Shown here: positions 33,501 through 64,000 of the stretch, piece after piece | How positions within the stretch are numbered: the first letter of the stretch is position 1 | Layout of the letters: the number at the start of each line of letters is the position of its first letter | Assembly: GCA_977020255.1 (NCBI GenBank) | Contig: CDROCS010002161.1 | Span: 124,001-188,000 of the forward strand | Direction: 5' to 3' | DNA: 64,000 nt | Source: Obrimoposthia wandeli | Lineage: Eukaryota | Position numbers and translations under genes: made by a program | Notes under the pieces: model-generated | What the model saw: only the letters and a program-made list of their open reading frames with translations | The model's database searches: none | What the model was told of the DNA's origin: nothing

Positions 33501-33508
33501 CCTCAGCA
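27528..33508 (+). repeat. Copy 1 of a ~6 kb near-identical duplicated segment
   Basis: Colinear with 37233-42558 (copy 2 lacks ~29410-30120). A ~410-bp subunit also recurs at ~27100, ~31125 and ~40176. Confidence 0.9.
29130..30000 (-). pseudogene. Degenerate hAT (Buster/Charlie-type) transposase
   Basis: Minus frames give LKKHLETKIH, FAIQIYETTDILKLTQL (cf. FALQLDETTD), RETGAKNFEIL and IFTDCA (cf. TDGA). Confidence 0.65.
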
Positions 33509-42558: not shown

Positions 42559-42596
42559 AGTAGGTGTATGTGTCCGGTCTAATCCACACACCCCTT

Positions 42597-42678
42597 CCCC
42601 CCTGTCCTTTAAAACCGTGCATGTGTGTGGAGTGAAATTTCACTCCACACACATGCACAGTTTTAAAGGACAGGGGGG
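42597..42678. repeat. 82-bp near-perfect palindrome in the Polinton terminus
   Basis: Two 41-bp arms centred on AAA|TTT (42637/42638), with one mismatch (42616/42659). Confidence 0.95.
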
Positions 42679-42713
42679 GTCCCAAACATTTTTTTCGCGC
42701 CTATTAGCGCGAA

Positions 42714-43080
42714 AGGCTCGGGACTGGTGTATATCACAGACTTCCTTGGGTGATGGCCGAAAGTCTCGGGACTCGTGTATATCACAGACTTCCTTGGGTG
42801 ATGGGGCGAAAGTCTCGGGACTGGTGTATATCACAGACTTCCTTGGGTGATGGGGCGAAAGTCTCGGTACTCGTGTATATCACAGACTTCCTTGGGTGAT
42901 GGGCGAAAGTCTCGGGACTCGTGTATATAACAGACTTCCTTGGGTGATGGGTGAAAGTCTCGGGACTCGTGTATATCATAGACTTCCTTGGGTGATGGGT
43001 GAAAGTCGACGGATGATGGGTGAAAGTCGTTGGGTGACGGGTGAAAGTCGTGGGTGACGGGTGAAAGTCGACGGGTGATG
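42714..43080 (+). repeat. Subterminal tandem array: ~6 x 48-49 bp, then ~4 x ~19 bp
   Basis: Unit aaagtctcgggactcgtgtatatcacagacttccttgggtgatgggg(cg), followed by gggtgaaagtcg..gtga units. Confidence 0.9.
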
Positions 43081-43275
43081 GGTGTTGGTTGGGGATTGTT
43101 GGTGACTACACATGTAGACGACCCGTGTCATACCCAAGATCCTAACATACACCACCCGCCCCTTCGGGGCGGGCTTCATTCTTGATCTCCAGGCACGAAA
43201 AACATTACAAAAAATAAATTATTTGAATAAGAGGCTCTCATTGGACAATAAAAGAGGGTTAGTAAGATGTTTGTG

Positions 43276-43284
43276 TATATAAAG
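43276..43284 (+). promoter_or_regulatory. TATA box of the first Polinton gene
   Basis: TATATAAAG ~35 nt upstream of ATG 43318. Confidence 0.4.
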
Positions 43285-43317
43285 ACACCTCCGTTCATTA
43301 TTTTTCATAAATCAACA

Positions 43318-45005: not shown

Positions 45006-45207
45006 TTTCATATGTTTTCTTCTTAATATTTTTTTTTTTTTTAATTTTAAATTTAGAAATACTATCTTTAAGTTTATTTGCAATGATAAGTTATAGATTT
45101 ATTAAACTCTCATTTGATAAATAAAAATATATCATTTAATTGGATTAAAATATATCTTAAATTTATATATATAGGTTCAAAATTATGAACCTCTTCATAA
45201 TTAAAAA

Positions 45208-45528
45208 ATGGAATTCATTAAAATGAAGAGTCTGGTAACGAAGATTGAAGCAAACATCAGAATAAATTAGAAGAAATGGTACTTAAGAAAGAGGGTCCTC
45301 AATCAGAATCTGTATGCTGCTGTCGCGACCGAGTGGAATCATCGGGTGGAGATACAAGATAGGAGGCTATCAGAACGACGTCGAATCGTGGAGTGTAATA
45401 AGAAGATCGAAATGGAAAAGAAGAAGGTGGATGAAAAAAGAAGAGAAGAGATGGAGGATAATCGTCGAGCAGCAAGAAAGAGAATCCTCCAGATAAAACC
45501 GGAAGAGGGTCCTTCTACAAAAAAATAA
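45208..45528 (+). pseudogene. Small charged coiled-coil Polinton ORF with one internal stop
   Basis: MEFIKMK...*...EIQDRRLSERRR...MEDNRRAARKRILQIKPEEGPSTKK. Homologous relic in copy A. Confidence 0.55.
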
Positions 45529-45691
45529 AATTTTGATTATTATTTTGTCTTTATTGATTATGTTACATAGGAGAATTGACAATATATACCAATCTTAACA
45601 TGAAAGATTGAATCCTGAGTACTTTGTTATTTTAATAAATTTTTGATTTTTTCGTTATAAACAACGGTATTTGCTGCAAATTTAGATAATT

Positions 45692-46180
45692 ATGCAGGAA
45701 TATATTATAGATTTTGAGGCTTTCATTAACAAAAATAGTGATTATATTATAAAAGAATTATGTATTATGGATGTATGCGACATTTTTCATCCTTTGCATT
45801 TCATATTTCAAATAGATATCCCGTTTAAAAGTTTAGATTATAAGAAAAAATTTACTAATTTATATCTAACTAATTACTTTCATTTATTAAAATGGAAAGA
45901 AGGACATAAGGCTTTTTGTGAAATATGTATTTTCGATACAATAACATCTAATTTTGATATAGAAAATGGAATTTTTTATGTTTTAGATGAAATGGATGGC
46001 AAAAAGTATAAGACTTTAAAAAAATATTTTCCTAAATTGAGATTGAATACTTTAAATATTTCACGTGATCATCTATTAAAAATTCCACGAAATATTTGCT
46101 GTCCATATCGTAATCATGGTGACCATTGCGCAGATGAAAAATGTTTAGGTCTATCTTATTATTACTTGACATGTAGATAA
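45692..46180 (+). CDS. Polinton-associated DEDD/DnaQ-like nuclease-fold protein
   Basis: N-terminal YIIDFEAF..YIIKEL (DxE motif); C-terminal CCPYRNHGDHCA, a Cys/His cluster seen in Polinton ORFs of this type. Confidence 0.55.
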   Translation: MQEYIIDFEAFINKNSDYIIKELCIMDVCDIFHPLHFIFQIDIPFKSLDYKKKFTNLYLTNYFHLLKWKEGHKAFCEICIFDTITSNFDIENGIFYVLDEMDGKKYKTLKKYFPKLRLNTLNISRDHLLKIPRNICCPYRNHGDHCADEKCLGLSYYYLTCR

Positions 46181-46349
46181 ACAATTCTTCTAATTCATAA
46201 TTTTCATTCAATTACAAATAATTCTTTTGATTGGAGAAATAAAAAATATTTTTTTCGACCATTTAACAGATAAACAATCCTTCTCAATTTTTTTAATCCA
46301 ATAGGAAAAGAGCATGTGTGCGTAAATTTTAGTTATAAGCAAACACTTT

Positions 46350-47386
46350 CTTCATTAAAATCCCCGACTATTTGAAATAATGACTATGATAAGAATCTAT
46401 ACTTATTATTTCATTATTAATATTTATTATTTCAGATTACTAGTTTATAGAAAAGAGAGAAACTGGAAGATACATTGGTTGATCTATACACATACCGACC
46501 GCGTCCCTATCTCTAGTTTCATTTTTAGATATCCATATTGTTCTCAAAAGTGGAACTCGCTGTCCTCCTACAAGCGTTGGTTCTATTAAATTAGTATAAA
46601 TATATAAATGAAAAACAGCATTTAAAAGTTTTGCCTTATTTTTAGCTTTTATGGTTTTTATTGTATGGGTTTCAAAGGTATTTCTGTTTAAACCAAGGTT
46701 TTTAGCGAGTTTATCATCAAATAAAACTCGTATTATATTGCTCTTTACTGTAAACGTTATTTTACCATTTTTTAATGTTACACATTTATCGAAATATTCA
46801 CTACATTCCTGTATTAATTTACATAAATTCACTTCACTATCTAATTTATAATCTTTTGAAAACATTTTCAGTTCCACTACATACTTTGGTCTCGTTTCAA
46901 CTAAAAACAGTTTTGTTACTCTATCAGGAACATTTTTAAACGATTTAGATGAGGTTATATCAGATCTCTTCATACCTACTACATGTCCACTGTCAAAACC
47001 GAATTGAAGAGCTTCTCTATCAGATCCAAATATAATTTGAATGGTTTTAAAAAATGTTTTAGTCTATTTTTAAATCTGACTTTGTTTTTTTCATATATTA
47101 CTTTCACTTCTTTATCTATACAATTGTAATAGAATTTTCCTTTACTATCAAACCCAATCACAACTTCAATTGATTTTTCATGATCAACTTCTTTTGTAAA
47201 CGAAATATGTGAGTTTTTTCTGATAGTAATTGGAGAATAATAAAAGGAAAATTATGTTAAAGCCGCTTCCCATTCTCCTTGGAGATTTATAGGATTTTCC
47301 CAATCGATAATAAAGCTACTAGCGTAATTATCTGGTTGAGTCTTTGGACATCCGTTACTAGGTAAAACCATATACATAGAATTCAT
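46350..47386 (-). pseudogene. Polinton minor capsid protein (penton)
   Basis: Starts MNSMYMVLPSN...NYASSF..NPINLQGEWEAAL and ends LYIYTNLIEPTLVGGQRVPLLRTI...QPMYLPV, the typical penton termini. Frameshifts and stops. Confidence 0.75.
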
Positions 47387-48412
47387 ATTATATTAGATGC
47401 TGATATCCAAGTTGGATCTGAATAACCATGCCATTTAACATAGTATTGTTTATGTTAACCGTCACCCTTAGATTTTAATATTTTTTGAATACGGAAAACG
47501 CTAGGTTTATTTGATATTACTTGTAGTTTTCGCTCGTAAAATTTACCGTGAACGATATAATTGTCAGCATCTTTAATAGTATACATTATTGGATTATTCT
47601 TTTGATCAATTTTACTTATACAAAATATTTCATCACTCCAATTCTGATCAAAGTTTTTAATAAATGGAGTAGAGCTAATTTTCGAAATTCGGACATATTC
47701 GTTTTTCTTATATTTAGCTTTTTTAATATTTTCTTTTTTATTCCTATTCATCCAAATATCCATAGAATTTTTATTAGTAACATCGACAGGTCTCATTCCC
47801 ATGAGAAATCTATGTTCAGATTGATTATAGGCATGTATTATTTTAGGTAAAACTTGGATCCATTTTTTATTTCCTTCTTTTGTGAAATACTTTTTTATTC
47901 GATCTCTTAAAGTACGATTAAATCTTTCTATTACTGCTGCTTTATACTGTGAAAACACAGAGTAGTGATTTATATTATTTTGTTTAAATAAAGATTGTAC
48001 TTGCTTATTATAAAATTCTTTTCCTAAATCAATTTGCACATTTTGTGAAATGTCCTCTTTTAATATTTCTTTAATGGCTTCAAGCATAGCTATTGAAGAC
48101 TTTGCTTTAACTGGAATTGCACGAGCAAACCTGCTAAATACATCAATACATGTTAAAATATATCAATATCCCTTATTAAAGGAAGAATATGGGATCATCT
48201 CCATCAAATCCATTTGCCATAAATTATTAGGGCCGCTGGTTTTTATAAGCTCTAGTTGGAAACCTTGTTCTCATCGGCTTGTTCAGACTGTAGGCTAACT
48301 GGTCACTCAGCCATTTCTGCGTTTTCTTGTTATTTTGTTTTGTTCTTTTTGATAATTTTGAAACTCCGGTGTAGCCAATTGGATCTTTTGGATTGAACCA
48401 TATCTTCTCCAT
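47383..48412 (-). pseudogene. Polinton retroviral-like (rve) integrase with C-terminal chromodomain
   Basis: NLWQMDL, YILTCIDVFSRFA (D1), QIDLGKEFYN (D2), KAAVIERFNRTL (E), FYERKLQ, YYVKWHGYSDPTW (chromo). Its stop overlaps the penton ATG (ATGA). Confidence 0.9.
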
Positions 48413-48498
48413 TACAACAATTTGAATAGAAAGAAAATTTAAATTTAGGTAAAGAAGGGTTAGCACCCATATCTTTAACTGATTTTATAAATAATTGT

Positions 48499-48828
48499 TT
48501 ATGAACGTGTTGCAGCTATAATACTACTGATATTTGAAGCAACAACTGGAATAACAGCCCCTATGAAACCACCATTCTGTTTAAGAATAATATTTCGTTT
48601 CCTTTTTTTACTTTTTACATTAGCAATATCTAGAAGAGTTTTTCTATATTTCTTTAATATAATTTTCCGATTTCCAACTTTTACTCGACCCAAAACTATA
48701 TTATACAAAACTTCCAATAAATCATCTACAACAAAAGATGGAAATGCTTTAAGAATAATCATTCTCTTATGAGAACAGGCTTTGACTAAAGCATTTAAAT
48801 AGGGTATGCTTCTTTGTATTTTCTTCAT
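48499..48828 (-). CDS. Small basic Polinton protein with QNGGFIG motif (putative core protein / adenain substrate)
   Basis: Lys/Arg-rich 109 aa. KQNGGF followed by a hydrophobic tail resembles the xxGG cleavage motif of adenovirus-type proteases. Confidence 0.6.
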   Translation of the reverse strand: MKKIQRSIPYLNALVKACSHKRMIILKAFPSFVVDDLLEVLYNIVLGRVKVGNRKIILKKYRKTLLDIANVKSKKRKRNIILKQNGGFIGAVIPVVASNISSIIAATRS

Positions 48829-48859
48829 TTTAATAAAAAAGGTTCAATTTGAATAATGT

Positions 48860-49000
48860 TTATATTCGAAGCCATTTAAGTTTTTTTTTATTTCTAACTA
48901 CAGATTTGATTAATTTTTTCACTTCTTTTTTCTTAATGATTCTTTTTATTGATTTCTTAGGATTTGCTTTACGTTTTACTATAAACTTCTTAAAAGGCAT
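48860..49000 (-). CDS. 46-aa Lys-rich ORF (putative DNA-condensing core protein), below ORF-track threshold
   Basis: MPFKKFIVKRKANPKKSIKRIIKKKEVKKLIKSVVRNKKKLKWLRI*, between the ATPase and the GGF ORF, same strand. Confidence 0.45.
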   Translation of the reverse strand: MPFKKFIVKRKANPKKSIKRIIKKKEVKKLIKSVVRNKKKLKWLRI

Positions 49001-49049
49001 TATAAATTTATCTTTTATGATTGTTATCTATTTGTTTATAAACAGTTAC

Positions 49050-49664
49050 TCCCTTAGAATTAAATATATGGGTTAAAACACGTAAATCATCTTGGCAAGC
49101 TTGTGTAAAGTCAATAAATATATACCCATGTGCTTGTTTAGCAGCATCGTGGAATGAATCAACTAGAAAGTTCTTATTTTAGGGAAATGCCTGTCTGGCC
49201 ACAAAATCAACAACTGTTTGATCTCTAGGATTTTTAAATAAAACTAAGTAATGCACATTAAAATTTCTAGTTCTATGGTGACCTCCTTGGTGAAAAGGAT
49301 TTTGAGTGATAAATATAACTGTTACTTCACGATGTCTTGCAATCTCGTAAATAAATTATTAAAGTCCGATTCCTTGTTAGCTTCCTGATACAAATCATCA
49401 ATTATTTTTACATCTTCTTTTTTCAATCTTTCCCACCAATTTGCATCAAATCCTTCTGTTGGGGTTTCTATATGAAACTTATAGATCCTCTTGAATGTGG
49501 AGGGCCCCAACGTGAGTTCTTATAGAAGCAGGACTTAAGGATGGTTGTGGCCTACTTAATGTTATAGTTGCCTGTCTCAATTCTTATCTGAAAGTGTTTG
49601 TTTTCCGATGTCTTTTAATCTGAAGGGTTTAGAACAACGCTTTCTAATGTAGGAAATCGTTTAT
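49050..49664 (-). pseudogene. Polinton FtsK/A32-like packaging ATPase
   Basis: Degenerate Walker A (VVLNPSD*KT), Walker B IIDDL, NLFTR-(fs)-RHREVTVIFITQN, HYLVLFKNPRD, RQAFP, HGYIFIDF. Confidence 0.85.
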
Positions 49665-49818
49665 TGTTAACACACTAAACTAGCACAAAGCAATACGTTT
49701 ACGTACGTATTTCTAAAAAGTTACAGTAAATTCCTAAGACTTCTGTAAGTCTCTACACAAGTGGGGATGAACCACGTATCGATTCTAATTTAGGTTTGGT
49801 TAATTTCGTAGAGTCTTT

Positions 49819-50430
49819 ATATGGGCAATTCAAGTTATTCAAAATTTCACGATTTACTTTAAACTCTTTCAATATAGGCAATTCAAGTTATTCAAAATTT
49901 CACGATTTACTTTAAACTCTTTCAATATAGGCAATTCAAGTTATTCAAAATTTCACGATTTACTTTAAACTCTTTCAATATAGGCAATTAAAGTTATTCA
50001 AAATTTCACGATTTACTTTAAACTCTTTCAATATAGGCAATTCAAGTTATTCAAAATTTCACGATTTACTTTAAACTCTTTCAATATAGGCAATTCAAGT
50101 TATTCAAAATTTCACGATTTACTTTAAACTCTTTCAATATAGGCAATTCAAGTTATTCAAAATTTCACGATTTACTTTAAACTCTTTCAATATAGGCAAT
50201 TCAAGTTATTCAAAATTTCACGATTTACTTTAAACTCTTTCAATATAGGCAATTCAAGTTATTCAAAATTTCACGATTTACTTTAAACTCTTTCAATATA
50301 GTCAATTCAAATTATTCAAAATTTCACGATTTACTTTAAACTCTTTCAATATAGGCAATTCAATTTCACAATTTACTTTAAATCAATATATGACAATTCA
50401 CTTTCACAATTTACTTTAAATCAATATATG
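49819..50430 (+). repeat. 53-bp tandem array (~10 near-identical copies) plus two degenerate ~38-bp units
   Basis: Unit gcaattcaagttattcaaaatttcacgatttactttaaactctttcaatatag at 49825, 49878, 49931 ... 50302. Confidence 0.95.
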
Positions 50431-51448
50431 ACAATTCACTTTCACAGTTTTACTTTGAATTGTTATACTTCTTACACGAAATGGAAAGCCGTCCGTTGTT
50501 CGATTCGCAAGAGTCCTGGTATCAGTGGTGCTGCTCGCGCTGCGTATGAGATTGAGAGCCGTTCGATCCTTCCTGGCTTGGCTCCGACTTGTCTGAGGGC
50601 GCGATTCGATTTTGTGTTGTCTTCTTCTTATCGACTTATATTCTGGCTATTCTTGTTTGTTTCTGGCCATTTATATAAGTCCAATTTTCCTCCATATCCG
50701 CCCCTCCTCGAGTGATAAGTGCTTCTAATTGATTCCTGTCTGCACTTGCTCAGCAGGCTCGGCTGCTCGCCTTCTCAGTTCCTAGAATGATCTAAAACAG
50801 AGCACTTAACAAAAGCACTTACTTGTAGACAGCCGTCCAAGTTCCCTGTGCGGCTCTGTACAGTAATGGATTATTGCTGGATTTCTTCTTAATTGAGTGA
50901 CTGACTCAACTCTCCAAAATGAGTTAATTAATTCCTTAAATTCGTTTAATTTGGACTTTCTTAACCGGCTAATTCTGTTTTTTGGGGCCCTTTTTGTTAA
51001 CGTTAACTTCTATAAATACTTACACATCACACACGACCTTCGTGGTCCCTAAATATTTTATTACAATTTTAATCTCATCAATTTCAATTTTGATATTAAA
51101 TTTATCTAATTCTAACCTTGCTTTCAAGGATTTCTATTTCACTATAAAATCAATTAATTATTTAATTTATTTCAAAACCTAAACCTAACATATCTCGGGG
51201 GTTCTAAAAAAGTTACGTCCCCGGAACGTATCGATTAAATTTACTAGCCTCTGGACTACTGATTTTAAATCATCCCCACTAATTTCAATCATTCAAAACT
51301 CATCAACATGTCTAATGTTCAACAAAATTCGGAACTACTGCCAAGATAGTGAATAAATCGGACGAAGTCACAAATATTCACTACATATATTATACACAAG
51401 TGTTTTAGAAAAGGAAAGGGGCAGGAAAGGATGAAATGTAACGTTTTA

Positions 51449-51978
51449 TCAGTTGTCGCAGGTGAGGTCAATTGTTACTGTTGGCTGGTTCCGACTGTCC
51501 AAATAGAGCATGACCTGCTCCAGGGGTAGGTCTGAGAAGGACGGAATGTCCCCGAGGAGTAGGTCCATCTGCTGGAACGGGGTCAGGTGTGGGCTCTCGA
51601 CAAATAGATCGAAATCCTGCCCGTACAGCTCATTGTTCTCTATCCATAACCGTCTGGCCTGTTGCCATGAACGGCAGTCGCGGCTAGACCGCCACCGTTC
51701 GCGGATGCCAATTTGCACATCGCGACGGCGCGCGAGGCACACCGAGCATTGGCAATGCTCGCCACCAATGCAACTGGTGGGTGAGTGGGTGCCCTTGGGT
51801 CGTCCACGGCACTGGAGCGTCCACTCGGAAAAGGGTACCGGCACATCGGGCATGTGATGTGGCCGGGGGGTCGAGCCTTGGCCCACAAATAGAGGCAGGA
51901 CTCGTGGAATTTGTGCCGGCACCCGGCAGGGGAAGCCGACTCTGCCCAGATTTTCTCGAGGCAAATTGAGCAAAGCAT
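51449..51978 (-). CDS. RING-H2 E3 ligase-like protein 3, with a -1-frame C-terminus (Cys cluster + SIM-like TIDLT)
   Basis: CSIC..CRHKFH..C..CPMC in ORF 51640-51978. The Cys cluster shared with the other two RING ORFs (C....HCQCSVC..RR) lies in ORF 51449-52012, the -1 frame after CCCTTTT. Confidence 0.75.
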
Positions 51979-52269
51979 CTGCGCAATAATTACTCTTTAA
52001 TTTGGGGTTCAATTGGGTCTAATATTAATTTATGAATTTAATATTTTAATTTTAATATTATAAGCCTTAGCATTTAATCCTACCGAATTCTGCTCTGATT
52101 TTAGGCATGTTTCTCACATTCATACTAAGCATAAAAATGGTAATGGTCATTTTACAGTTTCACAAGATTATACAATTATGATTACAATTATGGTAGCTAA
52201 TTTATCGCGGTATGCGATACACAGGGGTAGTTCATGATGTCACGTTTTAAGTCAGAAAGTTACCTTCGG

Positions 52270-52575
52270 TTACTGCTGGCTGTTGGGCTGGCCTGCGCGT
52301 CGCTCCTCTACGCAGAACGAACACCAGCAGTCGCAGATGTTTTTCCAGCAGTGTACAATGGGTACCACTGCTTGGAGGCTGTCCCGGTTGTAGACATAGT
52401 GCACCGAGAAGGTTGCTCTGCACATCGGGTAGTTTGGGTAGTCGAGGGGATTGTTGTTGTTGGCGATTGGGATCCATGTCTCGAGGCATTCGACGTGGAA
52501 CTGGTGGTCGCAGTTGTTGGGTTTGGTGTAGAGGTCCACGATGTTCTCGTAGCAGATTGAACATTCTCCAGACAT
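52270..52575 (-). CDS. RING-H2 protein 2 (7th ligand Cys->Tyr)
   Basis: CSIC-x11-CDHQFH..C...NYPMCRATF; C-terminal HCWKNICDCWCSFC..ERR. Confidence 0.8.
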   Translation of the reverse strand: MSGECSICYENIVDLYTKPNNCDHQFHVECLETWIPIANNNNPLDYPNYPMCRATFSVHYVYNRDSLQAVVPIVHCWKNICDCWCSFCVEERRAGQPNSQQ

Positions 52576-52635
52576 TACTGTGAGAGGGTTGATGTTGAAT
52601 TTGGGCTCGATTGAGGGCTGATGGTTTTGTGATGT

Positions 52636-52935
52636 TTACACAAAAGTGGTCGGATTTTGTCGTTCTGACAGACAGTAATAACACCAACATTCTCTCAAAT
52701 TCTTCCAACAGAATATCACTTGTACATCTACATCCTCTTGGTTGGTTTCTATTCTGATTAACCTTGTGAATTGTCTTCTGCATACAGGGCAACGAGGGTA
52801 TGTTGGATAGGGAGTTTCTCCATATGTTCTGATCCATTTTGATAAACATTCCTCGTGGTGTAAGTGGTTGCAGGTATCGGGTCTTGTTCTTCGTTCGGTT
52901 AAATCTTCGAAACATATTGGGCATTCTTCGGACAT
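52636..52935 (-). CDS. RING-H2 protein 1
   Basis: CPIC..CNHLHH..C..CPVCRRQF; C-terminal FCWKNLRECWCYYCLSER. Confidence 0.85.
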   Translation of the reverse strand: MSEECPICFEDLTERRTRPDTCNHLHHEECLSKWIRTYGETPYPTYPRCPVCRRQFTRLIRIETNQEDVDVQVIFCWKNLRECWCYYCLSERQNPTTFV

Positions 52936-53046
52936 TCTAAATACATGATGACAATTAATTTCTACACGAGTTTTACATATTTCTACTTATTTGTACAATC
53001 ACTTCTAAATATTTCTACATATTTTTTACACACTAATTTATCTACA

Positions 53047-53061: not shown

Positions 53062-55437
53062 TCATGTCTTGATGGGAGGCGGAGGTAAGGGTCGCAATTC
53101 CACTTCCTCCATTGTGGGTGTGTTACAGCATCGCAGTCCTTCGCATTTCCGTCGTATTCTTGGGCATACCTGACAGCCTTTCACGCACACGACTGTCAAG
53201 AGAACTACTGCTGTTGACACTACTGCCATTCCAATTAGAGCATTGACCGCTGTTATTCCGCTGTCCGATGATTGGTAATCATACTTCATTTTGTTGTTTG
53301 TCGGTTTGAATGGCGTTTCCATTGGTGTTGATCGGTTTCCATGTATTATGTCCGATTTTCTAATAACTCGCGGATTTGGATATTTTGTTTTCGGTCTAAC
53401 AGGTATTATTAATTGAGATTGGAAATGATATTTGGGATCTAGTGGAATCGTTCCCTTCACTCTTGTCCTCTTAATAATTGTACTTTGGTTTCTGGGATCG
53501 AGCTCTTTTCCTTTCACTTCTGCCTTTGTTATGATTACTTTTGGCTTCTCGGAATGGCGTTTACTTCCGTTTACCTTTGCCTTCTTTTTGACTATGATTG
53601 GTTTTTTGGAGTAGCGTTTACTTCCTTTCACCTTTTCATTTTTTATGACTATGATTGGTTTTCCGGGAATGATTTTCCTGGGTTTGATATTTATACTGAG
53701 TCCACGAAATCGACGTGTCTGGTATCTTAGAGTTATGTAGTATATTTCACCTGTTATTAATATGATTATGGTAGAGGTCTCTCTAGCATTGCTGGGAATT
53801 CGGTTACATAGACATTCTGTATCAAAATGTGGTACTAACATTTGGTTTTGAATTTCAAATCTGATTCCACCATCTGGATTGGGACACGACACTGTTACTT
53901 TGTCAGTTTCTAACAATCTGAAGAATAATCTAACGGAATTCCATACGGTTTTACGTCGTCTACCTGTGATCATAATCCTGTCGACAACTTTCCAGATGTG
54001 CTCGTCGTTAGGCAATATTAATGACTTTGTTCGGATAAATTGAATAATCCGTTTCCTTTTTGATATTGTTATTCGTAGGTATAATACATTTTCATGGTAG
54101 AATAATATCAGTCGGTAGTAAAGTTTGTGTTGGTCAATCTTTATTTTGATCTGGCGAATGACATACGATTTCTGATCGACATTTTCGGTTGCTGATGTTT
54201 GTAGGTGAATGTCTATTACGTAATTTGCTTTTATTAGAGGTATTTTTATGGATAACGCCCGTATCGTATCTTGTCTCCATTTACTGATCATGATCTCATA
54301 ACCAGCCTCGGTCGTGGTGATTTGCATGATCAGCATGATTCCTATGATCGTCTGGTTCCTAATCTCAGGAACATCTCTAGGATAACTCAAGTTACTCATG
54401 TAGTATGGTTTTTCCTCGATATGTTCGTATATCGTTGGCTGATACTCTGGTGCTGGTTCATTTAGGAATGCTGGTCTTGGTATCATTGTGTTGAATTTTT
54501 GTAAATTCATTTGACCTGCTTGTCTTGCGAGATCATGACGTTTCTTTTTCGATCTCAACTCTATCTTTGTACAACAAAACAAAATGAGCAATATTATTAT
54601 TATGACTCCGATAGTCAATGCTAGTATTGGATTAACCAATTCTAGAATACCATAACGTATTGCTGGTATCCCTTTACTCTTGATGGTTAATATTTTAAAT
54701 TTATGTGTACTTTGGTTGGACATGTCACTGAGAAGTACTATTTTAGTTTGTCCAAATGTGTATCCTTCACATGTGACAACACTAATTCCATAATGTCCAT
54801 TTAGTGTTTCCATTTCGGTCGCTGGGATTACACATATTCGTCCTGGACATCCTTTCACACACATGATCATCACGGCTTTACTATAAGACGTCTTGATTAT
54901 TTCTAGGGTGTTGTCTAGATTTCTCAGATGTAGATTATATCCAGGTAGCGTCATCAATTCAGCTTTACTGGTTGGAATGGCTTGTAGTACCAATCCAATT
55001 ACTACTCTGTAGATCAATCCTTGTGTAACAGTGCACAGGGCCTTGATTGTCCTTTTGCAAAGGGTTTTGATTATTATTCGTTTGAGAGACATCTGTTTCT
55101 GGTTAGGTCGTTTTGTCTGGTTTGTCTGTCGTTGCTTTGACATTTCTTCAATTCCAGTTTTCCTGATAATCAACTGTACCTGTTTTCCTTGTATCATCAA
55201 CTTTCCGAATCCATTTTTGGCGGACAAGCATGTTTTATGTCCTTCCATCGTTTCGATTATCACTCTCTTACTTCCATACTCACGTGTTTTGATGACATCG
55301 CCGTCGAATATGTACGTCGTACCTTTTGTATCCGCATCTTTTTGTATTTCCTTTACAATTCGTTTTCTTTGCCTGCATCCTGTGAACATTGCTGATATTC
55401 TATCAAGTGTGCGTTGTCGGTCAGCTTCATAATCCAT
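53062..55437 (-). CDS. 791-aa multi-segment membrane protein in the env position (not a recognised env class)
   Basis: Hydrophobic segments VVIGLVLQAIPTSKA, LALTIGVIIIILLILFCC, IIGIMLIMQITTTEA and ALIGMAVVSTAVVLLTVVCV. Cys-containing ~105-aa segment between the first two; basic KVKGSKR repeats. Confidence 0.7.
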   Translation of the reverse strand: MDYEADRQRTLDRISAMFTGCRQRKRIVKEIQKDADTKGTTYIFDGDVIKTREYGSKRVIIETMEGHKTCLSAKNGFGKLMIQGKQVQLIIRKTGIEEMSKQRQTNQTKRPNQKQMSLKRIIIKTLCKRTIKALCTVTQGLIYRVVIGLVLQAIPTSKAELMTLPGYNLHLRNLDNTLEIIKTSYSKAVMIMCVKGCPGRICVIPATEMETLNGHYGISVVTCEGYTFGQTKIVLLSDMSNQSTHKFKILTIKSKGIPAIRYGILELVNPILALTIGVIIIILLILFCCTKIELRSKKKRHDLARQAGQMNLQKFNTMIPRPAFLNEPAPEYQPTIYEHIEEKPYYMSNLSYPRDVPEIRNQTIIGIMLIMQITTTEAGYEIMISKWRQDTIRALSIKIPLIKANYVIDIHLQTSATENVDQKSYVIRQIKIKIDQHKLYYRLILFYHENVLYLRITISKRKRIIQFIRTKSLILPNDEHIWKVVDRIMITGRRRKTVWNSVRLFFRLLETDKVTVSCPNPDGGIRFEIQNQMLVPHFDTECLCNRIPSNARETSTIIILITGEIYYITLRYQTRRFRGLSINIKPRKIIPGKPIIVIKNEKVKGSKRYSKKPIIVKKKAKVNGSKRHSEKPKVIITKAEVKGKELDPRNQSTIIKRTRVKGTIPLDPKYHFQSQLIIPVRPKTKYPNPRVIRKSDIIHGNRSTPMETPFKPTNNKMKYDYQSSDSGITAVNALIGMAVVSTAVVLLTVVCVKGCQVCPRIRRKCEGLRCCNTPTMEEVELRPLPPPPIKT

Positions 55438-55680
55438 TCAGAATTGATTCAGTAGTCGGTTTTGTGGATAAAATATTGCTTCATTCACTATGTTATCCTC
55501 GATCCTTTCGTCTAAATACACAAGTACTTGGTTTGTTGGTCCATTTGGTCTCTTCATCTTTACAAACTGGAATCTTTTACTATCGGTTCTCATAGATCGG
55601 AGACATTTTCGGATAAGCCAAACATCAATTAGTCCTATCAACACTAATAGCATCATCAGTGCCGGTGTATTGTACTGCAT
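55438..55680 (-). CDS. 80-aa ORF with N-terminal hydrophobic segment
   Basis: ALMMLLVLIGLIDVWLIRK. Same frame as both flanking large ORFs; its stop abuts the next ATG (TGAATG). Confidence 0.5.
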   Translation of the reverse strand: MQYNTPALMMLLVLIGLIDVWLIRKCLRSMRTDSKRFQFVKMKRPNGPTNQVLVYLDERIEDNIVNEAIFYPQNRLLNQF

Positions 55681-55737
55681 GATTTAGTTGTTGATTTCTT
55701 TGAACCATGAACTATTTCCGTGGTTGGAGCCTATCTC

Positions 55738-58700
55738 TTATGCTCCCGTTATCGGCATTAGACAACTTAACAAGCCTAGTGCTAGCAATCTTTGGTATTG
55801 ATAGCTGGGCACTGATGTTGTAGCTTCATTTGTTTCTCGTTGTTGCTTCCTCTTTTCGGAGTATTTCTCTATTTCTCGAACGAGTAACGGTTTGAATTCC
55901 GTATCTGGTCTATTCTGTTTGGTGTAGACCATCGCTTCCTCTGGTGTATGACCATGGTACTCTACCAACAAGGATACACCTATGGTAGGCGCTAACATTG
56001 TACCTTTTTTCTGATATATCAGAACGCCGTTTCCTTCTGTGACTTCGGCTTGGATGGTTTGAGTCAGTTTCATCAGATGTTGTTGTGCATCGTTTATCTC
56101 CCGATTGGAAGCATGTATGTATCGAGTTGTGTCATCTTCAGTATTTTGACACAGGCTGATTATTTCATTTCCGACTTCAACAATGTTAATTACTCGGTTG
56201 ATACTGTGGAACTTTAATCCAGCAGTATCTATATCTCCTGGATGACATAGAAATACTTTCGGCATTATCTGAGTAATTTTGTCGACTCCGGCTAAGAATA
56301 AACCGGTCAACGATAGTGATTGGAGGAAATTCTTTTCCTTTGGATCCTCAGGGATGTCATCCATCCGTCTCTGTTCTTGCAACAGGAGTTGGTAATTTGA
56401 CAATTGTCCCAAAAAATTAAGGTTTGGGTTCGCGATACTTCGTTTTTCCTGTAGGTATTTCAGCGCTTCTAGTACCTGCATTCGTCTAGTCTTTATTAGA
56501 TATGCTAATACTAGGGTTGCTGATCGGGAGATTCCTTTCTGACAATGTACCAACACTTTTCCTTGGTTTTGGAGTTCTCTGTGAAGTATCTCGTTTGTTT
56601 CTACGAACCATTCGAGAAGATTAGCCTCCATTGAGTCTTTTACTCTTAATGTCATAGCTCTGATAGTCTGATATTGTGATTTGTGATTCATTGTAACATT
56701 GATCACGTATGTTATCCCTTGTTCCAACAGTTTCTTTTCGTCTGTTGCATCTTCCACATTTCCGAGGTATAACTTATCTGGAATGATCTCACTCATTGGT
56801 GGCATTAATTCTGACTCTTCAAGTTTTAGTCTTTCTAATCTCTTCTCTAGTTGTTCGTCGACGATGGATAATTTCGCCAGTTTCCTTCCTCTCAGCATTC
56901 GTATCGCTGGAGAGATATTCGTCTTTGTCTCTGATGTCTGTTCCTTTGTTGGTTCCTCTTCCGACTCAGTCTCTTCTGCGGATTTAATTCGTCTTTCTTG
57001 TATATTATGTTTCACGAATTCTATGATTCGTCTTTTTCTACTCTCTTTAGCTAATTCAACCTCCATGGTTCTTCCGAAACGCTCTATTATGTTATCTTCG
57101 GATTCTGTTGACTCTGGATCGCTACTTTCAAGTTCGCTATCTTGACTAGACTCGCTCGAAGGGTATTCTGGTATGTCTGTCTGAACTGAAATTAATGAAG
57201 GGGTTAGAATAATTGGATTGACTGGTCCTGCGTGTCTGAGAATCGGATACGGTATTTCACTATCCTTAAGTATCTCAACTTGGAACTGTGCTCCATAGCA
57301 CATGACAATTGTTTCCAATTTACCCATGATGGACAATCCATCAAAATAGGTGACACTCAGCTTAGATATCGGTGTTTTCGCATAATTAACTAAATGGACT
57401 CGTATCTCGGTTGATGACGGCCATCGATTTTTTAGTAAAATTATAATTTCGTCCTTTATCGATGTAATCACACTTGGCGCGGATGATACTATTTCAGCAT
57501 GATATTTTGGTTTGATTGAGGTTGTCACTTGTTCTCGGATCATATTGATTCGTTGTGGTTTATTTTTAGCTTCCCACTTCCGGTATCCGCTGTCAATGCG
57601 TAACTCTGCCGTTGCTTTAATGATTTTATTGTTTGTTATTTCTGGTTGGGTTGGCGAATGAAATACTTCTATTACGCTCAACCTTACAGATACTTCCGTT
57701 TGATCTGTGTTTAATTGGTGAGATTCCGGTATACTACATACAATGGTCTTTCCGTCAAAGTATTTGGTGTCCATCTGACATATTATCTTTTCAGTGTCAG
57801 CGTCGATTAAATGAACTCTCATTATGTCTCTTCTCCCATGTGAATTACGTAATACCATTATTACATCGTGGTATTCTTGTTTGAGTCTTTTTAGTGTACC
57901 ATGAAGTATGTGACCACCGGTCGGTTCTTTTTCTTCCTGACTGGCTAGTCCTGCTTCAGTACTGTCATAGTTCTGCCATGCAACTATGTTTGGTGTTAAT
58001 GTGATTTCGATTATCACTTTCTCAGTTGTAAACACATTGGAGTTTAGATGCAGTTCTGCAACTAGTGTATTTCCGTCGAAGTATGACACTCTAAGTTCGC
58101 ATAGAAATTCGTTTGTCAGTGCATCTTTCACAATGACTTCTTTCGCCACATCTGTTGGTTGTGTTTTTTCGAAAACGACTATGATCTCTTCGTTTTCTTC
58201 CAATATCTCTTGTGGTGCGATGTGTCTGATCTTTTCTTTTTCCTCTTGGTGCTTCATTCTGAGCATGCCAATTCTTGCTGGTTTTTTCTCGTTACCACTT
58301 GTCATCGTATTTATGTAGTTTCGATCACTTACCATTCGTGTAAGTTTAATGGTATTGGTATTCGGCTTCAATTTCTGTGATCTTAGCTCATATCGTGACG
58401 CATTATCTTTATTCGGTACTAGTTTACATCGATTCGCATGTACAATCATTGGTTCCTTGTTCCGGTTCTCCTCGTTGATTACTTTCAAGTTCGTTGAGAT
58501 TGTCTGTATCACCTTGTATGGTCCTTTGTATGGTCTATGAAGTTTAAACGATAGACCTGGTTCGATGACTGGATAAAATATCATCACTTGATCTCCGACT
58601 CTAAATTCAAGTGGTTTTGCCTTTTTGTCATATTGTTCCTTGTAACCTTCTTGATTGAATTTCAGTTTCAATCCTGCTTTAGTCCAAGCATCTTGTAATC

Positions 58701-59511
58701 TTTCTTTCATAACGACAATGTATTGTTCAGTTTCTAGATACTGAGATGTTGGTTCAGTCCACTCCAGATCCATTGGCATATTGTTCTGTCTGAGATACAT
58801 CAGATAGAATGGTGTGTGACCCGTCGCCTCTCGAACTGAATTCCTGTAAGCATATAAACATGAAGATAAATATTTATCCCAATCCTCTGAGCAATAGGAT
58901 TGTACCATCATACATAAAGTTTTATTAAACCTTTCTACTAGACCATCGGTTTGTGGGTGATATGGTGAAGTTTGTAACTTCATGATTCCGAATATCTTCG
59001 ATACTGCTTTTATTACTTCTCCGGTGAAGTTCTTACCTTGATCCGTTAACAACTTTCTAGGCACTCCGTATCGAAATATTATATCTTCCACTAAGATCTG
59101 CGCTATTGTTTCAGCCTTCTGGTTTTGCATGGGATATGCTTCTACCCATCTCGTCATGTAGTCCGTAAATACTATGACGTACTTGTTTCCTTTACCTGAT
59201 TCTCTCAATAGTCCCAATATATCCATCGCTGTGAATTCCATTGGTGCCAAAGGAACTGGCATTGGTTTCAGTGGAACTTTAGTACGAGTTCCAGTGTCTT
59301 TTCTGGTTAAACATACTTTACATTGTTTACACCATTGTTTTATGTCGTCTTCCATACCATCCCAATGGTACTTCTCTTTGATTCTGGCTATTGTCTTTCG
59401 TCCTGACAGATGTCCTCCTAGTGTTCCATCGTGATACTGGATCATCACTGCTGTTTTCAATGACTTCGGAATTACTACTACTATCTTTCCGACATTGTTG
59501 ACAATATACAA
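55738..59511 (-). CDS. Ty3/gypsy integrase fused to 3 x YFDG domain, dual-specificity phosphatase, pseudophosphatase and a hydrophobic C-terminus
   Basis: H..GGH...C..C zinc finger, AMDILG / TDQGKNF / TDGLVERFN (DDE), YKGPYKV (GPY/F). DSP core LYLGN...VLVHCQKGISRSAT...NPNLNF; second DSP-fold copy with VLIYQKKGTMLA. Confidence 0.92.
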   Translation of the reverse strand: MYIVNNVGKIVVVIPKSLKTAVMIQYHDGTLGGHLSGRKTIARIKEKYHWDGMEDDIKQWCKQCKVCLTRKDTGTRTKVPLKPMPVPLAPMEFTAMDILGLLRESGKGNKYVIVFTDYMTRWVEAYPMQNQKAETIAQILVEDIIFRYGVPRKLLTDQGKNFTGEVIKAVSKIFGIMKLQTSPYHPQTDGLVERFNKTLCMMVQSYCSEDWDKYLSSCLYAYRNSVREATGHTPFYLMYLRQNNMPMDLEWTEPTSQYLETEQYIVVMKERLQDAWTKAGLKLKFNQEGYKEQYDKKAKPLEFRVGDQVMIFYPVIEPGLSFKLHRPYKGPYKVIQTISTNLKVINEENRNKEPMIVHANRCKLVPNKDNASRYELRSQKLKPNTNTIKLTRMVSDRNYINTMTSGNEKKPARIGMLRMKHQEEKEKIRHIAPQEILEENEEIIVVFEKTQPTDVAKEVIVKDALTNEFLCELRVSYFDGNTLVAELHLNSNVFTTEKVIIEITLTPNIVAWQNYDSTEAGLASQEEKEPTGGHILHGTLKRLKQEYHDVIMVLRNSHGRRDIMRVHLIDADTEKIICQMDTKYFDGKTIVCSIPESHQLNTDQTEVSVRLSVIEVFHSPTQPEITNNKIIKATAELRIDSGYRKWEAKNKPQRINMIREQVTTSIKPKYHAEIVSSAPSVITSIKDEIIILLKNRWPSSTEIRVHLVNYAKTPISKLSVTYFDGLSIMGKLETIVMCYGAQFQVEILKDSEIPYPILRHAGPVNPIILTPSLISVQTDIPEYPSSESSQDSELESSDPESTESEDNIIERFGRTMEVELAKESRKRRIIEFVKHNIQERRIKSAEETESEEEPTKEQTSETKTNISPAIRMLRGRKLAKLSIVDEQLEKRLERLKLEESELMPPMSEIIPDKLYLGNVEDATDEKKLLEQGITYVINVTMNHKSQYQTIRAMTLRVKDSMEANLLEWFVETNEILHRELQNQGKVLVHCQKGISRSATLVLAYLIKTRRMQVLEALKYLQEKRSIANPNLNFLGQLSNYQLLLQEQRRMDDIPEDPKEKNFLQSLSLTGLFLAGVDKITQIMPKVFLCHPGDIDTAGLKFHSINRVINIVEVGNEIISLCQNTEDDTTRYIHASNREINDAQQHLMKLTQTIQAEVTEGNGVLIYQKKGTMLAPTIGVSLLVEYHGHTPEEAMVYTKQNRPDTEFKPLLVREIEKYSEKRKQQRETNEATTSVPSYQYQRLLALGLLSCLMPITGA

Positions 59512-60310
59512 GATTTCTTATTTTATCGAGTATTTTTTTCATCATTTCATCATTTAGATCTCCTTTCACTAACAATTCTTTGATTAGACTCAGTTCTTCA
59601 TCTTCTTTCTGTTCCTTTATGATTTCTTTGTCTATTTTACCCGTCTTCAGCAAAATCGTTAGTAGATTTGCATCTCCTTTTTGGTCGTTGGTTTCATCTT
59701 CTTCTGGAATTATGTTTCCTTTCTCGTCTACATTTGTCAACCTCGACAAACAGTCTGCGTTGCCATTCGACTTTCCGGTTCTATAACGGATTTCTAGATA
59801 GAATTCGGCCAATTTCAGAAACCATCTGTTTAATCTACTCATCTCGTCTCTATGTTTATACAAGAACTGTAGTGGTTTGTGGTCTGTATACAGGAATACC
59901 TTTTGTCCTAGCAAGTATTGTCTGTACTGTCTACATGAATATACTATGGCTAGACATTCCTTTTCGATGACAGAGTATCCTCTTTCGGCTCTGTTTAATC
60001 CTCTACTCGCATACGCGAAGACGTGTTCTCTTCCTTCGTCATCCTCTTGTCCCAATACTGCTCCTACAGCATAGTTACTTGCATCTGTCATTAGTATGAA
60101 TTGTCGGTTTATATCTGGAAACGCTAATATTGGTGCTTTTATCAGTCTTTCTTTTAAATGCTCGAACGCTTGTTGTGTTTCTTTTCCCCATATGAACTTC
60201 TCATCTTTTCTCGTCAACTTTTTCAATGGTGTTGCTATATCTGAAAAATGTTCAACAAATCGTCTATAATAGTTCGGAAGACCTAAAAAACTCTGTATTT
60301 CCTTAACAGT
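59327..60310 (-). pseudogene. RT connection and RNase H of the Ty3/gypsy pol (disrupted)
   Basis: VKEIQSFLG, ILMTDASNYAVGAVLGQ, YSVIEKECLA, YTDHKPL, YRTGKSNGNADCLSR. TAG at 60311-13 and a frameshift near 59535. Confidence 0.92.
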
Positions 60311-61540
60311 CTATGGCGCTAAATGCGCTTTTACTTTCTCGATCTTTGCTGGATCAGGTCGAATACCTTCTTTCGATACTATATGTCCTAAAAATGTTAC
60401 TCGCTCTTTAGCCCATTCGCATTTTGTAGGTTTAACTTTTAATTTAGCGTTTTCCAGTCTTTTAAATACAACTTCAAGATTTTTTAAATGTTCTTCGAAC
60501 GTCTTCGAAAATATTATTATGTCATCGATATAAACCATCGTGTTTGCACACGATGCGAGTACAAAATTCATGCAACGCTGAAATGTTGCTGGTGCTCCTG
60601 TCAGTCCGAATGGCATTTTTTCGCATTCGTATAGTCAATCTCCGCAGGAAAAGGCTGTTTTGTGTTTATCCTCTTCCTCTATCTCGATTTGCCAGTATCC
60701 ACTCTGCAAATCCAATGTCGTGAAATAATCTGAATTACCTAATTTATCAAGCATCTCTTCAATTCTAGGTAATGGATACACATCTTTTCTTGTGATCTTG
60801 TTCAGTTCTCTGAAATCTATACAGAATCTTATTTTTACATCCTTCTTTTTAACCAACACCATAGGTGCTGAGAATGGTGAAAAATTCGGTCTAATTACTC
60901 CTGTTTTAGACATATCTTCAATCTGACTTTTTACTTCATCTTGTAACTGTAATGGTACTCGATATGGTCTTCTTCTGACTACTTTGTCTTCTGTCAGCGG
61001 TATTGTGTGTTTTATGACAGGTGTTTCTCCTATGTCATATGGATTTTTTGCAATTACTTTTGGAAATTTATGTATTAGATCAAGTAATTGTTTCTTTTCT
61101 CTAGTTGTCAGTCTTTCTGATTGGATTACTATTTCTTCGTAATCATTCGTGTCTTTATCGAGTTTCATAGCACACACAGTGGGATTCTCCATCTGTGCTA
61201 TCTTTCCCAACCTCATTCCTCTGTATAACAGGACGTCGTTGTTGGTTGTATTCATCAGTCTAACTGGTATTTTGTGGTTTTCAATCAGATATACTGTACT
61301 CACAATTGGTAATTCATATTTTTCTATGAAATCCCGTGATGGTTCGAACACAACTGGTCCTTTATCTTCTGATAATGTGTGGCCTTGAATAAGAAATTGT
61401 GATCTTTTACCGATTTTTATAGGATTTTCTATAATTACATCAATTTGATTTATCTGTCTGTTTGACGTACTATCTTTCAATCTTGGATCTTGTAAATCGA
61501 TACTTATCACTTTGAGTTGTGATAGTACATCCATTCCCAA
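60311..61540 (-). pseudogene. Reverse transcriptase of the Ty3/gypsy pol (one in-frame TGA)
   Basis: RRRPYRVP, FCIDFRELN, YPLPRI, LDLQSGYWQI, TAF...MPFGL, YIDDII. TGA at 60635-37. Confidence 0.95.
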
Positions 61541-61623
61541 ATTGTAGGTTCAGGACATTCTTTCATGATTCTAACTGGTATAGTGATCGTATTACGTCCA
61601 ATTATAAATGTACATGGTAATAT

Positions 61624-62330
61624 TCACGTCACTTTTACAGGGTCTCCGTTGACCGATACCAAGAATTCATCTGGTTCTGCCATTGTTCGTTTCTGTTCCT
61701 CTGTCAAACAATCTTCACTTACTATCGAAGCTACAGCACCTGTATCAATTAAGGCTTTTACTCTTAAATTATTTACTCTAATGATAGCTGCTGGTCGCTG
61801 TGCTCCATTTATATTTCCCATATGGTATATTGTATTTATTGAGTTATTAAATTCTGTCTGTCCACTTCCTTTGTTTGGATAGTGAAATCTAATATTTCTC
61901 ACTTTTCGATCTATTATCCTTCTACAAATCGGACATGATACCATTTCCTTCGCACATCTCCGACATGTTCTCACATGTCCGCATGGTAAAAAGGCAACTT
62001 CTATTTTGTTGACCATGCAAACTGCGCATTCCGGATCTTCTAGTACGTATTCTAGTTCGTTTATGTACTCTTTCTCTTTTGTTTCAATTGTACTGTCATC
62101 TTTATCTTTTAGTAATTCAAAAATTGATCCGTATCCGTTTCGCGTAGTTTTTATTTTTAATTCTACCAAATCTATGATTCTTTCTGCTTCTTTTGGATAT
62201 AGTCTTCTCACGAATGACACTACCGGTGTGTCTTGTTGAGCCAAAATCTCTTTCCGTGTGATTTGGTATTCGATTATACATTCGGTTTTTTCTGTTCTTT
62301 TTGCTTTATTTTGTTTTTAAAAATACAAAA
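61624..62330 (-). CDS. IAP-type RING finger directly followed by retropepsin protease
   Basis: CAVCMVNKIEVAFLPCGHVRTCRRCAKEMVSCPICR (C3HC4, IAP/MDM2 type), then VKALIDTGAVASIV. Frame open upstream to ~62330. Confidence 0.9.
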
Positions 62331-63163
62331 TTCGCAAAATTCATGATGTAAAGTTTTCTTAGGCAACTCGAGAGTATATCTGTCTTTGATTCGTTCTTTT
62401 TTACACTTGTGGCATTTAATCACGTCTTTACCATCCTTTTTATAGCAAAAAGTCCCTTTTTTGCCAATTTTTTAAGTCTTGGATCTTTGAAAGTTACTTC
62501 TCGATATTGTTCGTCACATTCGTTTACTTCTCGCATTACTTCGAATATGTCCTCAATTTGACTGTTTGTTATCACTCTGCCTACTATTAAAGCTGATTCT
62601 CCTTCTGGAATCTCATCACTGTTATCGAAATCGGGTGCTTTCCCCCTTTGAATTTCTGGTACGTTTGAAGTTTTCAGTTTCAAAAGGAATGGACAATTTG
62701 GTGCATCTCTTTTATGACGTTTCATTGGGTTTTCATTGTTTTCCCAATTTCTAAATTTTACTCTACACCATACGCATCGTACTACTCTCTCAGAACCATA
62801 ACTATTTGTCGTGTCTAACATTTGCAACCCTGTTCTCGCCATTTTACGTGACATTTCTTTTGAATAGTACGGTTCTAGTGATCTTCGTCTATTTCTCTCG
62901 AATCTAAGAGGATCTCTTTCTAATAGATTCACATATGTTATTTTCCTCCTCGTCGTAGTTTGTAGTTCGTCGTCTACTCCTTTGTAGTGAAGTATCGACT
63001 TTACTAGCACTTCCTGTTTCCTGTTTTGGTACGGATTTCCCATACGGAACATAGTGTATTTTTCCTTTTCAACTATAGGTCCTCTCAACATTTTTATCTC
63101 TCTCACTGAACTGTCGTTCTTAAAACTCTTGTTGTTTGGTAATATTATTATTCCTTCAAACAT
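62330..63163 (-). CDS. BIR domain(s) of an IAP module in the retroelement polyprotein
   Basis: BIR1 has the exact C-x2-C-x16-H-x6-C spacing (CVWC...H-KRDAPN-CPFL). A second, degenerate BIR (LAKKGLF..[fs]..DVIKCHKC...HHEFCEF) spans a frameshift at ~62435. Confidence 0.85.
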
Positions 63164-63231
63164 TCGTATTACTCCATTCCAATCATGACTGGACTACCAC
63201 AATCTGTGAATATTCTAGCATTTAACTGCAA

Positions 63232-64000
63232 TGTATTATTCAACTTTACAATACCTCGTTTATACTATTATATATAGTTGAGTTATTACATTAGTTATGT
63301 TAGCCTCTGATACGTGTACTATTAACAGAGTAGAACTCACTGAGGGTTATAGGCTAAATAATGACACTAACTATACACTAAAATGTGAAATATACAAGTA
63401 TAAAAGTGGGAAATTAATAATTTGTTATTGTACTGTGCATCGACACTGTCGATTGGGTCGGACCGATGCTAAGATAGTCATCAGTGAAAATTTACTAAAA
63501 ATGTAATAGATACGATGATGAGATATTTGGTCTAAATAATTGAATGCTCACTTCAAACTAAGGTATTAGTAACGAATGAAAATTACACATAAATATTTGA
63601 ATTTGGTTTAAAAAACAAAAAAATTGCATAAATTTTGTCAAGGAACTTTTGAAAACTATTCTTTCTTAGAAGAAAAAAGATTCACAGAGTCTTAAAAATT
63701 CGTTCAAAGCATAATGTAGTTTTATTCCAGAAAGATTCAGCAGATGAAATGTATATTCGAAATTACTCAGATAGTTAGCTTTAAACGTTGCCCCAAGAAA
63801 TTTTATTATTTAAACAATGACAACGAAAAATGATTGTTATTTCCCAATCCAATTTCATTTCCATTTTGCCATATATTTCTATTGACTAAGTCAAGAAATA
63901 GACTTTTATGACATTTGTTTATGTAGTATTCACTAGACACGTGTGTATTTCATGTAATGGCGTACCGAAGGCATATTGGATTCGGAAGATGGCTTCAAAT
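63232..64000 (+). repeat. Third partial copy of the duplicated segment
   Basis: Matches 32156-~33215 and 41212-~42260, with an internal deletion of ~290 bp. Confidence 0.9.

Follow-up and report, generated by a model that had tools for sequence, protein, structure and literature searches.

The window, that is, the whole 64-kb stretch of DNA analysed here, contains a surviving element of about 13.6 kb, in which Pfam matches give the PR-RT-RH-IN order of Ty3/gypsy (Metaviridae) and an IAP-like cassette lies directly ahead of the protease. The BIR-RING-protease feature is on the minus strand throughout. The surviving order is protease′–IAP–protease–RT–RH–IN, where protease′ is the remainder of a second, upstream protease, and about 3,400 codons of broken ORF are left. 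From the 5′ side of the element onward, the features are as follows.

63232..64000, no strand assigned: host repeat ending the element on its 5′ side; copy of 41210–42267 with an internal gap of ~290 bp
63172..63231, minus: C-terminal end of an additional aspartic protease lying upstream, cut by the junction; frame break at ~63172
62684..62860, minus: BIR1, canonical zinc ligands at 62776–62693; positions 76/80 are R/D
62328..62510, minus: BIR-derived second unit, C-x2-C-x18-H-x3-C at 62414–62334; frame break at ~62456–62438
62086..62256, minus: UBA-like helical domain of IAP type, preceded by a second frame break at ~62316–62301
61924..62028, minus: IAP-type C3HC4 RING (zf-C3HC4_3, E 4.5e-13)
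61828..61842, minus: putative protease cleavage motif at the IAP/protease boundary, proposed from its position and its likeness to relatives
61460..61806, minus: RT-proximal aspartic protease, DTG at 61752–61735; stop at 61626, frame break near 61545
59560..61459, minus: clade-conserved spacer between protease and RT, followed by RT and RNase H; interrupted by stops (60637, 60313) and by a frame break ahead of the integrase
58350..59517, minus: integrase (H2C2 and core), 52–61% identical to the nearest gag-env-pol giant polyproteins
56830..58299, minus: 490-aa region of the integrase ORF with no assigned domain; weak IPT/TIG fold lead (Atlas score 0.84)
55741..56829, minus: within the integrase ORF, a dual-specificity phosphatase (DSP) whose catalytic motif is intact (unbroken domain at 56829–56370), then a second, degenerate DSP
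53062..55683, minus: same-frame continuation past stops at 55740, 55686 and 55440; 791-aa ORF, hydrophobic, with likely membrane-spanning stretches
51640..52986, minus: three short RING ORFs, two of them best matching zf-RING_2; codon usage unlike pol
49648..50694, minus: putative 3′ LTR of ~1 kb; purine tract at 50709–50697, TG...CA ends matching at 8/10, 53-nt tandem array inside

As read from its sequence, the cassette is composed of a BIR (BIR1), a BIR-derived unit (BIR′, or unit 2), a UBA-like domain and a RING. A profile search with the RING-protease ORF against 1.84 billion representatives gave 4,224 proteins at E 0.001; among the best 150, which were examined, the similarity of the top three (P0098–P0100) and of P0160 extends to the sequence ahead of the RING. 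BIR1, unit 2, the UBA-like domain and the RING are colinear in these single intact relatives, across all three frames. The exact zinc-ligand spacing attributed to BIR1 in the preliminary description is borne out: the domain, in ORF 63193–62420, matches Pfam BIR with an E value of 2.5e-12 (47.6 bits), and its ligands at 62776–62693 follow C-x2-C-x16-H-x6-C, the spacing of the IAP (BIRP) family. BIR1 gave no match in a phage collection.

A second BIR-like unit had been described as emerging across a frameshift near 62435, with another slip near 62330. The unit is real, and its break at ~62456–62438 is close to the first of these positions, but its ligand spacing is non-canonical; the second frame change also exists, although it is placed at ~62316–62301. 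Both positions were set by colinear alignment of P0098 and P0100 to all three frames of the window, and in the element as summarised here unit 2 spans the two changes, its first half lying in the frame of BIR1 and its second half in another. When the break is read as X, an HMM built from 45 canonical BIRs gives unit 2 a score of 15.2 bits, confined to the N-terminal half; the highest of 2000 shuffled sequences reached 9.3 bits, and BIR1, as positive control, 44.2 bits. An HMM of the corresponding unit in four relatives gives 26.3 bits, against at most 10.4 bits for a shuffle. The second half alone has no BIR match in Pfam. The variant unit is common to P0098, P0099, P0100 and P0160 (4/4). In AlphaFold models of the intact relatives P0100 and P0099 (mean pLDDT 71.6 and 73.9), BIR1 matches solved BIRs with Z scores of about 10 and unit 2 with 5.8–6.9, the latter possibly biased towards the BIR fold by the canonical BIRs held in the alignments. 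Unit 2 is thus BIR-derived but non-canonical, and does not amount to a second canonical BIR.

The helical domain was compared as a family with five Pfam-annotated IAP UBA stretches by hhalign, which gave a probability of 94.9% and an E value of 4e-8. The window stretch alone scores weakly (6.5 bits, with 2/2000 shuffles higher) and has no Pfam match by itself. A high-confidence helical bundle precedes the RING in the models of P0100 and P0099; fold searches on these models returned no UBA structure among the matches for the helical domain. Among solved structures, the RING is most like those of cIAP1, cIAP2 and XIAP (E 3e-11 to 1e-10). The cassette had been called BIR-BIR-RING, the baculovirus and insect layout; BIR1 and the RING stand, whereas unit 2 is a variant and a UBA-like domain has to be added, and the architecture is closer to the XIAP/DIAP2-type BIR-BIR-UBA-RING. 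The whole-protein fold of P0100 (AlphaFold model) matches viral IAPs, at only 12–20% identity in the best rows, and with six relatives the window IAP forms a group distinct from other IAPs, weakly supported (SH-aLRT 85).

The RING is continuous in frame with the DTG protease, as had been proposed: both lie in one ORF, 62316–61624, with 57 open codons between them. This linker is open only in the RING-protease frame and, with stops making up 7.8% of off-frame codons in the element (197/2514), would be stop-free off-frame by chance in about 1% of cases. Just ahead of the protease, a hydrophobic motif resembles those found in relatives at the same place and at the usual distance, and a release of the IAP by cleavage would fit this motif (61842–61828). 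Cleavage there would leave a tail of ~30 residues after the RING; the tail measures 11–13 residues past the last cysteine in 102 of 143 RING matches among those listed. The RING is thus of IAP type, but would be C-terminal only after cleavage and then with a longer tail than usual. A long tail after the RING might impair RING dimerisation.

On its other side, the IAP is also bordered by protease sequence. A motif from the C-terminus of a protease is encoded in the 60 bases that separate the junction from the IAP ORF, and the layout is accordingly protease′–IAP–protease. The tail was first spotted by eye and then tested by profile: it aligns with HMM positions 77–110 of 130 (iE 0.085) and ranks second of 127,900 six-frame 16-mers against a profile of 40 clade proteases, rank 1 being the true protease tail of another element. 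A by-eye candidate for a tRNA primer site near 63200 was rejected, as that stretch encodes the protease tail.

Upstream of 63231 the element is cut off. The adjoining sequence, 63232–64000, is a near-identical copy of 41210–42267 (100% over 377 nt, then 97.7% over 394 nt), and the 5′ part has therefore been lost; HMMs run over six frames of the window gave no match to gag or env, and the 5′ LTR is absent from this copy. The copy is decayed, its coding sequence changing frame about five times and carrying stops at 61626, 60637 and 60313, and as it stands it cannot make an IAP-containing protein. The IAP-protease join is known from this one broken copy. The earlier reading of a complete IAP in pol holds for the domain set, not for the copy, which is broken, and it overlooked the UBA-like domain.

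Downstream, the protease-RT spacer is conserved across the clade and has no Pfam match; the dUTPase-like domain of Burro sits at this place. Following the integrase, the DSP region matches Pfam DSPc with E 3.6e-40 in two stretches, the second, degenerate DSP alone with E 3.1e-5, and the best solved relative of the DSP is DUSP10/MKP5 (E 4.3e-25). The MKP-like phosphatase and the degenerate DSP beside it, in frame after the integrase and absent from 28 relatives, are possibly a more novel cargo than the IAP. Codon usage is pol-like in both 53062–55683 and 56830–58299 (minus strand). The 791-aa membrane ORF was considered as the gB-type env of the clade and rejected, because the env HMM over six frames found no match. 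The three short RING ORFs are richer in GC than pol (GC3 0.52–0.63) and are perhaps later captures. The putative 3′ LTR adjoins a Polinton-type ATPase remnant and is the single candidate LTR of the copy.

That remnant belongs to a Polinton-like stretch at 42560–49647 comprising an integrase, a pX-like gene, an ATPase and a 48-nt array, as well as a terminal repeat with a head-to-head inverted copy at 42597–42678; the retroelement seems to have inserted into it. Its genes include Pfam rve and Adeno_PX matches, beside which we take the ATPase and integrase to be of Polinton likeness. The empty site lies at 33508, related Polinton ends at 23497–23573 and 26471–26561, and PolB pieces near 8833 and 24017. 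The segments 27085–42559 and 63232–64000 are recent segmental duplications of AT-rich host DNA, 93–100% identical, and the junction at 63231/63232 may mark a 22-kb tandem duplication. Repeats of 5 kb at 27.5–42.6 kb were rejected as LTRs; they are host duplications interrupted by the Polinton end at 42560. Elsewhere in the window are a second, more decayed gypsy-like pol fragment (14500–16000, minus strand) with protease tail, RT and RNase H, and an intronless protein kinase ORF of 520 codons (5177–6739, plus strand; Pfam Pkinase, E 5e-25) with unusual catalytic motifs.

Two integrase searches, in which 97/6,727 and 77/1,049 candidates passed, yielded relatives at 47–60% identity, many of which are single ORFs of 2,400–4,060 aa. 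In a quick tree of 80 of the 161 fetched proteins, the window integrase falls in a clade of 26 rows that contains 12 gB-env polyproteins (SH-aLRT 98); by this tree, the pol clusters with the GAG-ENV-POL gB-type errantiviruses. Among 14 giant relatives scanned, 13 carry a gB/Monjiviricetes-type env (PF24664) in frame before the protease. Their build is Burro-like: a CCHC gag, a SUMO-like domain (PF11976; P0257 has this domain, noted for Burro), a mononegavirus-like env before the protease, and ankyrins. Their env shares motifs with the env of a Schmidtea mediterranea errantivirus in the supplement of PMC13524379, an entry that we infer to be a Burro element. Ankyrins (P0257), C2H2 fingers (P0249, P0255) or extra proteases occupy the stretch from env to the RT-proximal protease, a slot whose content varies among relatives; the window IAP thus fills a place already known for cargo. 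In the gag-env-pol polyproteins P0249–P0262 and P0167, we also observed from two to four protease domains, with varied cargo (ankyrin, C2H2, Ig, ubiquitin-like) on both sides of pol.

These data lead us to regard the element, with reasonable though not high confidence, as the decayed 3′ portion of a giant, Burro-like Ty3/gypsy element of the GAG-ENV(gB-type)-POL kind, whose ancestral polyprotein would have carried a captured cellular IAP as cargo, freed as a pro-survival RING E3. That the IAP belongs to the polyprotein of the element is upheld by the two flanking protease domains, its pol codon usage and the cargo slot of the relatives. In the mechanism that we propose, the ancestor would have taken a cellular IAP into the cargo slot between two protease domains of one long polyprotein and translated it in the same chain as Gag, Env and Pol, following the pattern of the relatives, at Gag-like levels. 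The protease of the element would then cut at motifs flanking the cassette and release a free IAP with a tail of the length given above, which as a RING E3 ligase would keep the expressing cell alive. MKP-like phosphatases act against JNK/p38 signalling, and the one encoded after the integrase could damp this stress response alongside the IAP.

The original proposal, an anti-apoptotic E3 freed by the protease, finds favour in the polyprotein cargo, in the motif that fits cleavage and in the Burro1 precedent described below; its caspase-blocking part is less secure, and cell death provoked by retrotransposition would be only a possible motive. According to the text of PMC8917759 available to us, type II BIRs, which bind the IBM and hence caspases, have E/Q76 and W/H80. 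BIR1 carries R76 and D80 and lacks the type II groove residues, and BIR2 is non-canonical, so that direct caspase blocking by the window IAP is uncertain on sequence grounds; the protein may act more by ubiquitylation than by classic caspase binding through the IBM groove. E76 is present in 30 of 49 canonical BIRs in the fetched matches from the best 150 of 4,224. The same residues bear on a somewhat unlikely alternative, in which the cassette, though genuine cargo, encodes an E3 for signalling or for countering restriction, directed at NF-kB/TAK1/JNK-type targets or host defence proteins, and not a death inhibitor. None of the three relatives with a BIR1 has both type II residues and one has the type I-like L80, and type I BIRs bind TRAF/TAB1, not caspases (PMC3972657 and PMC8917759, available sections); the MAPK-phosphatase-like cargo points the same way, as do the three further RING ORFs of the element. 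Against it, the best single-domain matches of BIR1 are DIAP1 BIR1 and cIAP BIR2, and the BIR and RING region of Burro1 is reported, in the accessible part of PMC13465017, to be active against caspase-mediated apoptosis. Signalling and anti-death roles are, moreover, not mutually exclusive.

It is less probable still that the in-frame join is specific to this copy, the IAP of working elements being a separate or C-terminal ORF, or else tethered to the protease and controlling Pol turnover. What speaks for such a state is that the seven closest IAP relatives (from the best 150 of 4,224) all end 13–29 residues past the RING, and that the joining of BIR-RING to a protease in intact proteins, which the preliminary description would lead one to expect, was not found: RING and a protease motif occur together in 0 of the best 150 of 4,224 matches, BIR or RING is detected by Pfam in 0 of the 14 giant relatives, and a RING or DSP motif occurs in 0/28 relatives. 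A word-based search with the RING-protease ORF among proteins of 404–2000 aa passed 0 of 807 candidates, which is weak evidence; nor do the closest IAP relatives resemble the polyproteins of the clade. The join in the window is nevertheless unlike a chance one in that the linker is open in a single frame and carries the pre-protease motif of the clade at its usual distance, and a protease tail lies directly upstream of the IAP. Least of all do we credit, and regard as largely refuted, the idea that the BIR segment is a separate insertion (a host retrocopy or a Polinton IAP) or an assembly chimera brought into pol by chance: although Polinton genes adjoin the element, the region has been rearranged and duplicated, and mollusc and insect gene models that combine an IAP with retro-domains can be chimeras produced by annotation (PMC8917759 and PMC13159474), the IAP resembles pol and neither Polinton nor host DNA in base composition and strand skew (A3 0.48 versus 0.47 in RT-RH), its codon usage correlates with RT-RH at r 0.88 and with Polinton genes at 0.44 and 0.65, which points to long residence, and it has protease sequence on both sides and domains that are colinear in single relatives.

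Returning to the captured-cargo reading, a bolder version of it is possible, although we hold it only tentatively: a gB-env lineage would have captured an XIAP/DIAP2-type IAP independently of Burro1, together with a working JNK/p38-type MAPK phosphatase and a pseudophosphatase, all in one protease-processed polyprotein, and P0098–P0100 and P0160 would form a mobile IAP subfamily with a variant second zinc site. Were this so, a retrotransposon would carry a two-arm anti-death and anti-immune kit of the sort found in large DNA viruses. From Burro1 came the suggestion that a transposon can benefit the stem cells of its host by way of an IAP that it has captured. Another such arrangement, in which the IAP occupies the slot from env to protease and a MAPK phosphatase follows the integrase, would show a recurring strategy of gB-env giant retroelements and not a one-off, and would supply testable proteins. 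GAG-ENV-POL gB-type elements are reported in Nematoda, Bryozoa and Platyhelminthes (PMC13524379, available text), and RING-bearing IAPs are reported to be missing, through loss, from the host genomes of nematodes and flatworms, two of these three phyla (PMC13159474, available text); such elements could therefore resupply a lost function.

Comparison with known systems places the element nearest to Burro. Burro/GYPSM1 is a planarian giant gypsy with BIR, ankyrin, MATH and BCL2 domains and an in-frame env (PMC6431247, as far as available), and, as cited from Lee et al. 2026 in the available text of PMC13465017, the B-IAP of Burro1, which comprises a RING and a BIR, is reported to shield the stem cells of planarians against apoptosis mediated by caspases. 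By analogy, the window IAP might work in the same way. The element resembles Burro1/GYPSM1 and Burro-2 to -4, as described in the sources at hand, in its gypsy pol, in what would have been one huge reading frame that had taken up domains of apoptosis and ubiquitin pathways, BIR among them, and in having BIR cargo in the polyprotein; the likeness is one of build and description. Burro exceeds 30 kb, with long LTRs and one ORF of ~5,000 aa; of the present element, the lengths given above survive. MATH, BCL2, SUMO-like and ankyrin domains are missing from the surviving part, and in Burro MATH, SUMO and BCL2 lie upstream of env, in the region lost here. The apparent differences from Burro are a BIR-BIR′-UBA-like-RING cassette directly before the protease and between two proteases, and DSP domains after the integrase; the portion of PMC6431247 available to us does not mention ‘phosphatase’. 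In the largely open-access literature that we searched, we found no description of this layout beyond Burro and no gypsy element with a captured dual-specificity phosphatase.

With the GAG-ENV-POL HSV/gB-type errantiviruses of PMC13524379, the element shares an integrase clade, and the env motifs of its relatives match the S. mediterranea member; env and gag are, in contrast, absent from the window, where the element is cut off at 63231, and the main text of that paper, to the extent available, does not mention BIR, RING, apoptosis or phosphatase cargo. The BIR fold, the IAP-type RING and the UBA-like domain are held in common with cellular XIAP/DIAP2/cIAP-type and baculovirus/nudivirus IAPs, from which the window IAP differs in its non-canonical unit 2, in a BIR1 without type II residues and in a RING that does not end the ORF. 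Because the B-IAP of Burro1 has already been reported as protective, the concept of a cell-protecting IAP on a retroelement is known; the novelty here lies in a more complete IAP, in where it sits and in an MKP-like phosphatase that follows the integrase.
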